A stretch of DNA of 64,000 nt, from assembly GCA_964016885.1 (NCBI GenBank), contig CAXHJY010001677.1:62001-126000 (forward strand), in the 5' to 3' direction. How positions within the stretch are numbered: position 1 is the first letter of the stretch; each line of letters starts with the position of its first letter. Of the stretch, positions 10,753-47,249 are shown one piece after another. The notes beneath the pieces were generated by a model. The model was not told where the DNA came from and did not search any database. It saw only the letters and a list, made by a program, of their open reading frames with translations. The stretch comes from Eledone cirrhosa. Lineage: Eukaryota. A program made the position numbers and the translations under genes.

Positions 10753-10785
<33 letters not shown>

Positions 10786-10811
10786 AGTATATATATATAT
10801 ATGTATATATG

Positions 10812-10845
<34 letters not shown>

Positions 10846-11042
10846 CGTATATATATATATGTATCTATATATATATATACGTATATATATATGTGTATAC
10901 ATATATGTATATATGTATATATATATGTATATATATATGTGAATATATGTATATATGTACATACATATATATATGTGTATATATATATATATGTATATAT
11001 ATATACAATTAACAACAAAGAGCGCTTAGAACATAGGTATAT

Positions 11043-11100
11043 CTTTAATTGCTAACAGTGTTTCGTCCACACTAGAAGTGGGACTCTTCAGAGCATAAAG
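11043..11100 (-). ncRNA. Type I HHR (mirror 46995-47052, plus)
   Basis: cttta-TGCT-CTGAAGA-GTCCCAC ttcta GTGTGGAC-GAAA-cactg-TT-AGCA-at-taaag. Canonical core with stems I and II paired. Confidence 0.85.
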
Positions 11101-11214
11101 AGTAAATACATAGTATACAAGCATTGACAAAGCCAAAACAGAAGAATATATGTGGGGATACCATAAGTTGGGAGGAGTTTAAAGAGTAAAGTAAAAGGAG
11201 TAAAATAAGAAAAG

Positions 11215-11830
11215 AGTAAAATAAAAATAAAAATAAAAATAAAAATAAAAATAAAAATAAAAATAAAAATAAAAATAAAAATAAAAATAAAAATAAAAAT
11301 AAAAATAAAAATAAAAATAAAAATAAAAATAAAAATAAAAATAAAAATGAAAAATAAGAAATGTTATCACTCACAGTTGGGCAGGGTTCCGTTAACATAC
11401 AGCTACATACAAGTATACGCATAATCATGAGCACCCGCATGCACCTACACACAAGCACCCGTATGCAACACATACAGTATACACTAATACAAATAACATA
11501 TCATAGACGGATGGGCACAAGTTAAGAGATAGAGAAAGATAAAAAATAGATAAGAGGTAGATAAAAAATAGATAAAAAAATAGATAAAAAATAGATAAAA
11601 AATAGATAAAAAATAGATAAAAAATAGATAAAAAATAGATAAAAAATAGATAAAAAATAGATAAAAAAATAGATAAAAAATAGATAAAAAATGGATAAAA
11701 CATAGATAAAACAGATAAAAAATAAATAAAAACTAGGTAAAAAATAGATAAAAATAGATAAAAAATATATAAAAAATAGATTAAAAAATAGATAAAAAAT
11801 AGATAAAAGATAAAAAATAAAATGAAATAA
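11215..11830. repeat. (AAAAAT)n hexamer run and (ATAGATAAAAA)n 11-mer minisatellite within the HHR-bearing non-coding segment 11005-11995
   Basis: Read directly. Both runs are longer in the mirror copy (about 46140-46880). Confidence 0.9.
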
Positions 11831-11996
11831 AATAAAATAAAGTAAAGTAAAATATACACCAGAAGATAAATAAAACAATACACCAAAAAAATGGAGTAAA
11901 ATATACAACATAAAGGAAGGTGTGGGTAAAGATAAGACTGGCAAATGCATAAGCTATCAAGCTATGTTCAACAAGTGATATACGTACAATATATAA

Positions 11997-13105
11997 AAGA
12001 ATGAAACGCGTAGATTACTTCCCTTGCTTTTATCGAGAATCTAATTGTAATACGTGACGTATTCTATTCTATAGCGATTAGGTCTTCAAAATGTTTATTA
12101 TAAACATACAGAATATTTTCGAATATTCTATGTCTATATTCACATATATATCGCTATTTCAGAGCATTTATTCCAATTTCTAATTTCTGCCGGACCGGCA
12201 ACCGCTCTTTCAAACCAGTTCCTGTACACAGCTAAGTATTCTATAAGTCTCTAGCTGTGTCATTCTCGATAAAAGCACTGGATATGTAGTTCTGAAGATT
12301 TCTAATAAGAATGAAACGCGTAGATTACTTCCCTTGCTTTTATCGAGAATCTAATTGTAATACGTGACGTATTCTATTCTATAGCGATTAGGTCTTCAAA
12401 GTGTTTATTATAAACATACAGAATATTTTCGAATATTCTATGTCTATATTCACATATATATCGCTATTTCAGAGCATTTATTCCAATTTCTAATTTCTGC
12501 CGGACCGGCAACCGCTCTTTCAAACCAGTTCCTGTACACAGCTAAGTATTCTATAAGTCTCTAGCTGTGTCATTCTCGATAAAAGCACTGGAGATGTAGT
12601 CCTGAAGATTTCTAATAAGAATGAAACGCGTAGATTACTTCCCTTGCTTTTATCGAGAATCTAATTGTAATACGTGACGTATTCTATTCTATAGCGATTA
12701 GGTCTTCAAAATGTTTATTATAAACATACAGAATATTTTCGAATATTCTATGTCTATATTCACATATATATCGCTATTTCAGAGCATTTATTCCAATTTC
12801 TAATTTCTGCCGGACCGGCAACCGCTCTTTCAAACCAGTTCCTGTACACAGCTAAGTATTCTATAAGTCTCTAGCTGTGTCATTCTCGATAAAAGCACTG
12901 GATATGTAGTCCTGAAGATTTCTAATAAGAATGAAACGCGTAGATTACTTCCCTTGCTTTTATCGAGAATCTAATTGTAATACGTGACGTATTCTATTCT
13001 ATAGCGATTAGGTCTTCAAAATGTTTATTATAAACATACAGAATATTTTCGAATATTCTATGTCTATATTCACATATATATCGCTATTTCAGAGCATTTA
13101 TTCCA

Positions 13106-13107
<2 letters not shown>
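11997..13107 (+). repeat. Tandem array, 310 bp unit x ~3.6, retrozyme-like, one HHR per unit junction
   Basis: atgaaacgcgtagattac recurs at 12001, 12311, 12621 and 12931. Units are nearly identical. Confidence 0.95.
12596..12638 (+). ncRNA. Minimal type I HHR of the 310 bp unit (also 12286-12328 and 12906-12948; mirrors 45047-45089, 45357-45399, 45667-45709, minus)
   Basis: GTAGTC-CTGAAGA-tTTCT aata AGAAt-GAAA-CGCG-TA-GATTAC. Palindromic stem III (ACGCGT) and predicted cleavage after GUA. Confidence 0.85.
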
Positions 13108-13137
<30 letters not shown>

Positions 13138-13215
13138 GTATATATATACGTATATATGTATATGTATATATATATATATGTATACATATATATGTATATA
13201 TATATATGTATATAT

Positions 13216-14643
13216 ATTGTTATACTTTGGGAGGGTCATGTTGCCAATAAGAAACACACGCACCAGTTGCTTTCACTTCAATTTATTATATATTTATAAA
13301 CTTATAAATTTACAAATCTACAAATTTATAAATTTCTGGTTGGTTGGTTGGTTCCACAACCAGATAGTTGTTTATATATATAGTCATAGTCCTTTCGTCA
13401 CACACTCTGTGACCTCTTCAGTGACTGGGGATTCCTTTCTTTGTTTTTGTGCCTTTCCTTTCTTCTGTCCTACGCCATTTTGTTTCTGTGTGTGTGTTGT
13501 GTGCTCAGTTTGCGCATGCGCCATATCCGGGTGTCTGTGTGTGTTTGTGTTCATTTATTTATTTGTTTATTTATTTACATGTTATTGGTTGATTGTTTGT
13601 TCTATGTGTGTGTGTATTTTCATTTTGTCCTTAATTGTAAGTTGTGATGTTGCTGTTCCACTCATATTTTCTATTTAATTTTGGTTGTAATTCTTTTATC
13701 TTTATTGCCTCTGTAATTTGTCTAAACATAGCATATTTTCTGTGTGTAGATTCTATTTTTATTTCTATGTTCTCTAATTTACCCTTGTGTTCTATATTAG
13801 CATGTTGGTACAGTACGGATGATTCTTTATTATCTTGAAGGTCTCGCCAGTGTTCATTTATCCGTTCCCCTATACTACGAGCTGTCTCACCTATGTACAC
13901 TATATTTTTGTTTCTACATTGTCCTTCAGTACATCTTATGCTATACACTACATTTCTAGTTTTACAGTTAATATGGGGGCTTATTTTACAGGTTATACAT
14001 TTCTTATCTATACATGAGGGTCTTTGGAACGGGTATGTCTTGCTAATAAGTGTTTTTACGGAGGTACCTGGTCTTTCTACTATCTTAATATTGAGTTTAT
14101 GTTTATTTAGGGCCCTTCTAAATTTGTAGGCTTGTTCGCCTCTAGGGGTTGTATCGATGAACATTACACTCTGGTATTTATTGCTATCATACCGTGAGTT
14201 TATTCTATTGGCCTTGTTCCTAGTTCTTTCTATTCTATTCCAAAATTTGCTCCTATACAAGGGGCAGGTCCCATTTATGTCATTATTTACCATTTTTTCC
14301 CATTTGGTTCTGGCTCCTCTATACACTCTGATTCTATCTCTCTGATTGTAGCCAGAGAACTGCATACGGTGGATGAAGTGTTGTATGTGTCTCTCTAGTT
14401 CTTCGGGGTTGCACATGCGGGACACATTTCTCATCACCCGTACCAAATCCGCAATCAGTATGTTGATTTTGGTATGGTCCGAAATGGCCGAGTTTCGGTG
14501 GATCAGATGTTTGGAAGTCATGGGTTTGGCATAATGGGATGGAGGATTTGTTTTTGGTTGTTAATGGTATCTAACCAGAGCTCTGTGTCTAGTACAGGTA
14601 ATCGATGGTTGGGCTGTCTACTTGGGTAGACTATAGTAACTCT
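13216..14643 (-). mobile_element. PLE family A1: inverted upstream 3' segment (thumb, GIY-YIG, pLTR with HHR at 13382-13426)
   Basis: ORF 13631..14521(-) is nearly identical to 17444..18334(+). It joins the plus-strand copy at about 14641-14643 via tct microhomology. Confidence 0.93.
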
Positions 14644-14653
14644 TATTGGCAAC

Positions 14654-44887: not shown

Positions 44888-44889
<2 letters not shown>

Positions 44890-45998
44890 TGGAATAAATG
44901 CTCTGAAATAGCGATATATATGTGAATATAGACATAGAATATTCGAAAATATTCTGTATGTTTATAATAAACATTTTGAAGACCTAATCGCTATAGAATA
45001 GAATACGTCACGTATTACAATTAGATTCTCGATAAAAGCAAGGGAAGTAATCTACGCGTTTCATTCTTATTAGAAATCTTCAGGACTACATATCCAGTGC
45101 TTTTATCGAGAATGACACAGCTAGAGACTTATAGAATACTTAGCTGTGTACAGGAACTGGTTTGAAAGAGCGGTTGCCGGTCCGGCAGAAATTAGAAATT
45201 GGAATAAATGCTCTGAAATAGCGATATATATGTGAATATAGACATAGAATATTCGAAAATATTCTGTATGTTTATAATAAACATTTTGAAGACCTAATCG
45301 CTATAGAATAGAATACGTCACGTATTACAATTAGATTCTCGATAAAAGCAAGGGAAGTAATCTACGCGTTTCATTCTTATTAGAAATCTTCAGGACTACA
45401 TCTCCAGTGCTTTTATCGAGAATGACACAGCTAGAGACTTATAGAATACTTAGCTGTGTACAGGAACTGGTTTGAAAGAGCGGTTGCCGGTCCGGCAGAA
45501 ATTAGAAATTGGAATAAATGCTCTGAAATAGCGATATATATGTGAATATAGACATAGAATATTCGAAAATATTCTGTATGTTTATAATAAACATTTTGAA
45601 GACCTAATCGCTATAGAATAGAATACGTCACGTATTACAATTAGATTCTCGATAAAAGCAAGGGAAGTAATCTACGCGTTTCATTCTTATTAGAAATCTT
45701 CAGAACTACATATCCAGTGCTTTTATCGAGAATGACACAGCTAGAGACTTATAGAATACTTAGCTGTGTACAGGAACTGGTTTGAAAGAGCGGTTGCCGG
45801 TCCGGCAGAAATTAGAAATTGGAATAAATGCTCTGAAATAGCGATATATATGTGAATATAGACATAGAATATTCGAAAATATTCTGTATGTTTATAATAA
45901 ACATTTTGAAGACCTAATCGCTATAGAATAGAATACGTCACGTATTACAATTAGATTCTCGATAAAAGCAAGGGAAGTAATCTACGCGTTTCATTCTT
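44888..45998 (-). repeat. Mirror copy of the 310 bp retrozyme-like array
   Basis: Reverse complement of 11997-13107. Confidence 0.95.
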
Positions 45999-47249
45999 TT
46001 ATATATTGTACGTATATCACTTGTTGAACATAGCTTGATAGCTTATGCATTTGCCAGTCTTATCTTTACCCACACCTTCCTTTATGTTGTATATTTTACT
46101 CCATTTTTTTGGTGTATTGTTTTATTTATCTTCTGGTGTATATTTTACTTTACTTTATTTTATTTTATTTCATTTTATTTTTTATCTTTTATCTATTTTT
46201 TATCTATTTTTTATCTATTTTTTTATCTATTTTTTATATATTTTTTATCTATTTTTATCTATTTTTTACCTAGTTTTTATTTATTTTTTATCTATGTTTT
46301 ATCTATGTTTTATCCATTTTTATCTATTTTTTTATCTATTTTTTATCTATTTTTTATCTATTTTTTATCTATTTTTTATCTATTTTTTATCTATTTTTTA
46401 TCTATTTTTTATCTATTTTTTATCTATTTTTTATCTATTTTTTATCTATTTTTTTGTCTATTTTTTATCTACCTCTTATCTATTTTTTATCTTTCTCTAT
46501 CTCTTAACTTGTGCCCATCCGTCTATGATATGTTATTTGTATTAGTGTATACTGTATGTGTTGCATACGGGTGCTTGTGTGTAGGTGCATGCGGGTGCTC
46601 ATGATTATGCGTATACTTGTATGTAGCTGTATGTTAACGGAACCCTGCCCAACTGTGAGTGATAACATTTCTTATTTTTCATTTTTATTTTTATTTTTAT
46701 TTTTATTTTTATTTTTATTTTTATTTTTATTTTTATTTTTATTTTTATTTTTATTTTTATTTTTATTTTTATTTTTATTTTTATTTTTATTTTTATTTTT
46801 ATTTTTATTTTTATTTTTATTTTTATTTTTATTTTTATTTTTATTTTTATTTTTATTTTTATTTTTATTTTTATTTTACTCTTTTCTTATTTTACTCCTT
46901 TTACTTTACTCTTTAAACTCCTCCCAACTTATGGTATCCCCACATATATTCTTCTGTTTTGGCTTTGTCAATGCTTGTATACTATGTATTTACTCTTTAT
47001 GCTCTGAAGAGTCCCACTTCTAGTGTGGACGAAACACTGTTAGCAATTAAAGATATACCTATGTTCTAAGCGCTCTTTGTTGTTAATTGTATATATATAT
47101 ACATATATATATATATACACATATATATATGTATGTACATATATACATATATTCACATATATATATACATATATATATACATATATACATATATGTATAC
47201 ACATATATATATACGTATATATATATATAGATACATATATATATATACG

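Follow-up and report, generated by a model that had tools for sequence, protein, structure and literature searches.

The 310-bp tandem array described here is probably a young non-LTR retrozyme that is moved in trans by a Penelope-like element (PLE), with reverse transcription (RT) starting at twin internal sites of the RNA. The retrozyme itself is ordinary. The new part is the anatomy of its insertions, and the mode of array insertion is the main point of this report; it was missed in the initial annotation of the window (the whole stretch of 64,000 nucleotides analysed). Two standing questions are concerned. One is which machinery moves animal retrozymes, and whether the circle is the template; the other is how the inverted arms of PLEs, with their one-sided tail, arise. 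Both are made countable by more than 1,000 near-identical young insertions of a 310-nt RNA.

Background

In the literature, non-LTR retrozymes are short hammerhead-bearing repeats in tandem that are expressed as circles, and PLEs have been put forward as a 'strong candidate' for moving them (Cervera and de la Pena 2020, PMC7229834). More recently, mobilisation by PLEs was argued from co-occurrence and pLTR homology, with the mechanism left to work out (Li et al. 2026, 10.64898/2026.07.22.740005). PLE insertions are marked by an inverted 5'-truncated copy, a tail of 30–40 bp that is often present at one end only, and (TA)n targets, the latter in the Hydra, Naiad and Neptune clades; the origin of inverted arms with a one-end tail is listed there as unresolved (PMC8557442). 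The purified PLE protein of the green anole cleaves both target strands, extends each of them on sense RNA, and is modelled as a dimer; RT starts at two internal sites which bound the tail, and hammerhead cleavage was unneeded in vitro (PMC11167929). No published retrozyme insertion with a PLE tail or inverted arms was found in a literature search that covered main texts, mostly of open-access papers.

The array in the window and its neighbours

The array (Table 1) has a period of 310 bp and 99% identity between copies. Its three whole units differ from each other at 1–3 positions, and the GC content of the unit is 34%. Unit positions are counted from 12633, the first base past a GUA cleavage site. 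As in other non-LTR retrozymes, the unit has no LTR and appears to be non-coding. The sole open frame of at least 150 aa in the array begins within the final 74 nt and continues across the TA repeat, and an ORF with RT and GIY-YIG, as in an autonomous PLE, is absent from the array.

Table 1. Positions in the window of the array, its predicted ribozymes and priming sites, and adjoining elements.
Feature	Position	Strand	Remark
Hydra-type PLE 3' region, 5'-truncated, own hammerhead (core 11091)	11006..11998	-	left neighbour
Candidate retrozyme array, 3.6 x 310 bp	11997..13107	+	5' truncation within hammerhead stem II
Monomer 1, cleavage site to cleavage site	12013..12322	+	
Predicted type I hammerhead, core from 12292	12280..12332	+	predicted cleavage after 12322
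Monomer 2	12323..12632	+	
Predicted type I hammerhead, core from 12602	12590..12642	+	predicted cleavage after 12632
Monomer 3	12633..12942	+	numbering reference
Predicted 16-bp long-range stem closing the branched body	12645..12897	+	12645-12660 with 12882-12897
Predicted type I hammerhead, core from 12912	12900..12952	+	predicted cleavage after 12942
Putative 'short' priming site, AT run of the last unit	13072..13081	+	unit positions 130-139
Penelope-type 'tail' between both priming sites	13082..13107	+	unit positions 140-165
3' end of the array ('long', tail-bearing end)	13107	+	unit position 165
(TA)n target tract	13106..13217		
Decayed PLE, same anatomy	13218..18807		right neighbour
Inverted twin of the array	44888..46001	-	within ~58-kb palindrome

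The contig that contains the window is 272 kb long, in a genome of 3.0 Gb, and the window is rich in decayed PLEs within (TA)n. Positions 1–58069 form a palindrome of about 58 kb (arms 1–23710 and 34283–58069, 99.2–99.4% alike), and a third copy, in alternating orientation, is located upstream on the same contig. The palindrome may be a real inverted duplication or an assembly fold-back. The twin of the array shows 1 difference from it. The left junction of the array occurs three times on the contig with alternating orientation and was absent from all five other copies of the left-neighbour element examined. On these grounds, the twin was treated as the same locus and not as a second insertion.

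With its long end in place and the second arm absent, the array of the window is an atypical one-armed case. Its 5' end joins the truncated PLE 3' region head-to-head, with a few A's shared. This junction may be a chimeric insertion of two RNAs, a short and a long end being the rule; a deletion between two insertions explains it equally well. The left neighbour ends at its own short end (11006) in (TA)n 10753–11005, and another copy of this PLE carries RT and GIY-YIG with Hydra-clade motifs, clade labels being assigned from motifs judged by eye against PMC8557442. The right neighbour is a separate insertion in the same (TA)n, with the short end of an inverted arm at 13218 and a main copy whose tail of about 60 nt ends at 18807. 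Both flanking PLEs show short and long ends like the retrozyme insertions. Pfam searches with 8 PLE fragments returned one weak RVT_1 match, below cut-off.

Further elements of this kind were noted. At 18925–20000, another hammerhead-bearing element with a long stem II is present in two copies, only one of which has a tail (about 70 nt). At a different locus (L116 3123–5482), a two-armed insertion encloses a near-complete Hydra-type PLE ORF (RT and GIY-YIG, one frame break); this PLE has a very long 3' region crowded with simple repeats. The 591-bp array of the window (25003–28281, flank to about 28430) carries on its - strand, by eye, a hammerhead-like motif with a U3-A8 core, a long stem II and a palindromic stem III. 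It is bounded by (TA)n on either side and includes a short inverted arm, and is probably another retrozyme that was inserted with this anatomy. The 310-bp unit had been called unrelated to this family, and the alignment agrees (local score 21; shuffled mean 21.9).

A PLE sharing sequence with the retrozyme was searched for in two ways. No resemblance was seen between the 310-bp unit and the 3' regions of four PLE-like elements of the window, and no PLE was encountered at 60 loci with the conserved priming-site block (30 of 241 and 30 of 86 matches); these loci are retrozyme copies or chance matches.

Hammerhead ribozyme and predicted fold

The initial annotation had placed a hammerhead at each unit junction. 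Three complete type I cores are present (Table 1), and the first junction (11997–12022) holds only the 3' half. GUA cleavage sites end, by sequence, at 12012, 12322, 12632 and 12942. The hammerhead comprises a stem I of 6 pairs with 3 more beyond an internal loop, the core CUGAAGA, a stem II of 4 pairs over a U-U followed by GAAA, and a stem III of 1 pair closed by a palindromic tetraloop. In the first complete copy the first pair of stem I is a wobble; in the second, the palindromic stem III is at 12626–12631 and the U-U lies at the base of stem II. Rfam gave no match in the array at gathering score. With E up to 10, weak sub-threshold matches to Hammerhead_HH9 (E 0.57 and 2.5) were obtained, the rest being TA-repeat miRNA noise. 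As all Rfam matches are below threshold, the ribozyme assignment is based on motif and fold.

The complementary segments that had been named for the unit were all recovered, that is, the 16-bp stem, the 8-bp helix ATAGCGAT/ATCGCTAT and five hairpins. The comparison with dinucleotide shuffles (n = 150), which had been put forward as the check, also came out for a structured RNA: the fold of the + strand unit scored -72.5 in linear (z -4.2) and -67.8 in circular mode (z -4.4), with z-scores of -4.6 and -5.4 for the - strand. Cleavage as a dimer had been suggested too. The unconstrained minimum free energy fold of 12270–12650, a stretch with two ribozymes, is a double hammerhead in which the palindromic stem III halves are paired and both cores are open, a fold compatible with the suggested dimer cleavage. 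The double hammerhead is the arrangement described for animal type I ribozymes (PMC4209133). In a recent study, only 1 of 9 tested retrozyme dimers cleaved (10.64898/2026.07.22.740005).

The U-U at the base of stem II had been suspected to inactivate the ribozyme. An axolotl hammerhead with the same U-U is reported to cleave weakly alone and better as a dimer (PMC7229834). The A-U form of stem II was found in only 8 of 50 two-armed insertions and the U-U form in the other 42. U-U is the majority form among mobile lineages; as an inactivating defect it is unsupported, and the concern is probably unfounded where mobility is considered.

Copy number and insertion ends

Genome-wide counts were made by exact sequence patterns. 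The search with a 29-mer taken from the unit gave 17,464 exact matches (about 5.4 Mb of units). The ribozyme form of the window was counted 1,578 times and the A-U stem II form 2,738 times. Ends fused to (TA)n number 1,041 at position 165 and 1,194 at about position 139. At the cleavage site there are at most 6 ends, possibly point variants; on this count, RT starting from the 3' end that cleavage leaves on a linear monomer was rejected. A control AT-rich site with more microhomology than position 165 gave 1 end; ends set by microhomology alone were rejected accordingly. Homology to the target at position 165 is only 2–3 nt, which argues for a start that is set by the protein.

Insertions were sampled on contig 1 only and mostly selected by their ends. 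For the first 222 Mb of this contig, 82 long and 100 short ends were listed. All 54 head-to-head pairs among them consist of one short and one long end (p 6e-17 against independent use of ends), and each of the 44 paired loci inspected is a two-armed array. The listed ends without a partner are 28 long and 46 short ones. Inspection of 19 of these 28 lone long ends revealed 14 two-armed insertions with a variant short end, 3 one-armed insertions, 1 two-armed insertion with the far end unseen and 1 end at a gap. A PLE arm was present at none of the 19, and retrozyme/PLE chimeras were rejected as a common class. Among 13 arrays chosen by the ribozyme motif alone, 9 were two-armed with a short and a long end, 3 one-armed and 1 cut by a gap.

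In two-armed arrays, both outer ends are sense 3' ends fused to (TA)n; the site at unit positions 130–139, internal in the array of the window, forms the opposite end of such insertions at other loci. Target-site duplications, which where present in non-LTR retrozymes are longer than 4 bp, would be masked here, as (TA)n occupies both flanks. Poly(A) is absent at the insertion ends. Judged by its genomic copies, the element is a dispersed, mobile and young retroelement.

Two further observations were made during these searches. Motif hits spaced about 60 kb and 6 kb apart (C12:17043245-17442406 and C14:25024762-25318856) point to large tandem duplications. In addition, 20 sequencing runs from 17 studies, none of them listed as RNA, contain 54–78% of the words sampled from monomer 3 (12633–12942). 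Four runs were examined: one, perhaps the source sample, yielded 604 contigs whose summed depth was very high and which had loose (AT)n ends at position 139, two yielded one self-closing 340-nt contig each (3 letters different, depth 365 and 34), and the fourth a partial contig at depth 5. These matches may represent trace DNA, contamination, low-copy relatives, or RNA common to the hosts.

Selection on the RNA and a sister family

Sequence variants were analysed in 784 whole or partial units from 70 loci. Variants fixed across an insertion were scored as inherited and singletons as private; indels (2 and 23, respectively) were excluded. Variant types that break a pair or the core account for 4 of 26 inherited and 35 of 71 private ones (p 0.0025). 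After removal of one end-effect variant, transitions at paired sites break the pair in 0 of 10 inherited and 13 of 23 private cases (p 0.002), and the core holds zero inherited variants. The tolerated changes are mostly A to G, which give G-U pairs on the + strand. Inherited variants spare fold and core, and selection on wobble pairs fits a + strand RNA. On the RNA strand, 10 of the 26 inherited substitution types are A to G. This bias is explained by selection for G-U pairs, a possible alternative being A-to-I editing of the RNA.

A sister family (B) is older and has a unit of 318–327 nt (L111 2700–3500, L040 3635–4118, L117–L176). Its hammerhead differs, with a longer palindromic stem III and a U3-A8 core, which is a reported hammerhead variant (PMC4209133). 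The fold is kept: in this comparison of two lineages only, 9 of 61 pairs are changed on both sides versus 0–3 in slid controls, and the 16-bp stem shows 4 double-sided changes. Family B is most similar to the 310-bp unit around both start sites and ends at the same two places. Among the same loci, a few copies with a third hammerhead form share the priming-site block.

The template of the two arms

The structure of the arms was studied in 61 insertions (62 junctions) for which each outer end is visible, out of 64 sequences examined. A short and a long end were found for 60 of the 62 junctions; of the two exceptions, one is a junction with a local repeat and the other a short end that the aligner had trimmed. 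The median insertion size is 7.8 units. Where both arms exceed 330 bp, the haplotype is identical in both arms in 45 of 50 insertions; 6.1 were expected by permutation, with a maximum of 14 in 5,000 permutations. The 5' ends of the arms are scattered along the unit, and those no more than 3 nt away from the cleavage site number 3 of 124, against an expectation of 2.4. Only 2 private changes were found in 601 crossings of the cleavage site, and such crossing without stalling indicates that the template was covalently continuous there. At the junctions between arms, 1–6 nt overlap in 36 cases, 7 are blunt, and 19 contain 1–28 extra bases. The change C131T is carried by the last unit at 34 of 60 short ends and by 11 of 540 internal units. 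From this excess, the target overlaps the AT run, so that the short start is placed at about 130–139 and the tail measures 26–35 nt.

This insertion record argues strongly for mobilisation by a PLE with two fixed internal starts, each used once, makes a good case for one template molecule per insertion, and lends moderate support to a circular template. Points on the other side are that no partner PLE was found in the searches given above and that arm lengths are only weakly correlated (rho 0.26, p 0.04). Tentatively, and short of calling it probable, we propose twin-primed rolling-circle RT, in which a PLE RT dimer on one 310-nt circle would extend two primed (TA)n strands and the cDNAs would be joined head-to-head.

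With the same element and the same PLE enzyme, the RNA that is copied could instead be a linear multimer, left uncleaved after transcription of an array in the genome; circles, where formed, would be a side product. This is rather unlikely, even if the anole PLE in vitro mainly uses RNA that has not been cleaved (PMC11167929), a clonal parent array would also yield clonal daughters, and the monomer hammerhead, with its one-pair stem III, requires a partner. Rank-matched sharing between arms was observed at two loci, as a haplotype switch at equal rank in both arms (L043) and as one private variant common to both (L060); both count against a single monomer circle, since they need a template switch or later conversion. 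Only one private variant, however, is common to both arms at equal rank (2 of 54 tests), and none of the 61 insertions has an inversion junction in common with another. Provided that parent arrays carry private changes like present arrays, these findings speak for a monomer circle rather than genomic multimers as the template. Further points against the multimer are that arm 5' ends lack start-site clustering (KS p 0.09), that inherited variants spare core and fold, and that rare haplotypes fill whole arrays (e.g. all 22 units of one insertion), which implies a one-unit bottleneck somewhere.

An inverted arm could also follow from single priming, by fold-back self-priming of the cDNA or from antisense RNA, as proposed for rotifer PLEs (PMC3846280), with the second end supplied by nuclease resolution or annealing. 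Several junctions do lie within hairpins of the unit, and one haplotype as well as rank-matched sharing would likewise result. Nevertheless this course is improbable. A copied arm cannot exceed the first cDNA, yet the long-end arm is longer at 35 and shorter at 27 of the 62 junctions, by up to kilobases; with neither arm consistently longer, fold-back in a fixed order was rejected. Moreover, the wobble-pair selection fits + strand RNA, and the anole enzyme extends both strands from sense RNA (PMC11167929).

Spread as satellite DNA at the DNA level (circles, unequal exchange) or movement by a LINE, with the hammerhead as a passenger, is very improbable: two arrays have grown at the DNA level, LINE-type RT fragments occur in the genome and L1 twin priming makes inversions (PMC2837659), but the fixed ends are paired in 54 of 54 cases on a (TA)n target and lack poly(A), the arms overlap rather than abut, the median insertion has 7.8 units, and selection on RNA pairing is strand-specific. 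The two grown loci, L078+L079 (C1:97461200-97476800) and L053+L077, are retrozyme insertions turning into satellites: one has an arm of 45 units in which recurrent variants are scattered, and in the other 7 units of an arm are duplicated.

Proposed course of insertion

For the probable mobilisation by a PLE, the following course is proposed. Arrays would be transcribed, and adjacent hammerheads would pair via their palindromic stem III; cleavage after GUA would then set free monomers of 310 nt. The pairing is a computed fold, and cleavage would proceed as in related ribozymes. The monomers would be ligated into circles, which is on balance to be expected from coral, mussel and axolotl retrozymes. 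An RT/GIY-YIG protein, very probably that of a PLE, would then cut both (TA)n strands and start RT at two fixed internal sites, one per target strand: position 165, set by the protein, and about 130–139, where the TA target would be annealed to the AT run; the end positions and their pairing are observed. Both cDNAs would copy one RNA, passing the ribozyme junction a random number of times. The common haplotype makes it likely that the same RNA molecule is copied into both arms. Finally, the 3' ends of the cDNAs would join via 1–6 nt microhomology or short filler, resulting in a head-to-head array with the tail at one end; the structures of the junctions are observed, and the order of the joining steps would follow from them. 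Some arrays later expand by DNA-level duplication, as seen in two loci.

If twin-primed rolling-circle RT is true, circular RNA would be a true retrotransposition template in an animal, and the inverted repeat and one-sided tail of PLEs would be explained as one event. The element provides two precisely placed start sites that can be tested, and its RNA could serve as a minimal substrate when a PLE is assayed in vitro.

Comparison with known systems

The assignment of the 310-bp element to the metazoan non-LTR retrozymes, made in the initial annotation, is supported at every point on which the sequence bears: tandem unit size, hammerheads, absence of coding capacity, low GC, fold and dispersal. 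Shared with this group are a tandem unit within 150–450 bp, one type I hammerhead per unit, low GC, a self-paired fold and co-occurrence with PLEs. The axolotl ribozymes HHR_Amex1 and HHR_Amex2 have the same stem III (one pair and a palindromic tetraloop) and the same U-U at the base of stem II, respectively. Published retrozymes show pLTR homology, whereas none was found for the 310-bp unit among the four PLE-like 3' regions of the window and the 60 loci. Inverted arms, tail and priming sites are not described in the accessible text on published non-LTR retrozymes; they are explicit in the 310-bp element. Newt satellite 2 and other hammerhead satellites, with a tandem unit of about 330 bp and a dimer-dependent hammerhead, are alike by their description in PMC7229834.

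Viroids and plant LTR retrozymes share with the element a small structured hammerhead RNA and rolling-circle logic. In contrast to them, the element has thousands of DNA copies, a type I instead of a type III ribozyme that is unblocked by pairing in the predicted fold, and no LTRs. A viroid or satellite RNA ('no DNA stage') was rejected in view of the 17,464 genomic units, and with only 57–61% of bases paired in the unit fold, the former description as viroid-like was an overstatement.

L1 twin priming as described in PMC2837659 is similar in that two primers are used on one RNA, the second by annealing, and in that the head-to-head junction has low microhomology. L1 starts at poly(A), with a variable second site and parts that do not overlap; in the 310-bp element the sites are fixed and 26–35 nt apart, and both arms repeat the unit many times.

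The closest likeness in insertion anatomy is to EN+ PLEs (Neptune, Hydra, Naiad, Poseidon), for which the same inverted 5'-truncated arm, one-end tail, (TA)n target and internal RT start away from the hammerhead site are described (PMC8557442, PMC3846280, PMC11167929). Compared with these, the 310-nt element has no ORF, a tail of 26–35 nt and a common haplotype in both arms, and the one-end tail, present 'often' in EN+ PLEs as described, is strict here (54 of 54).
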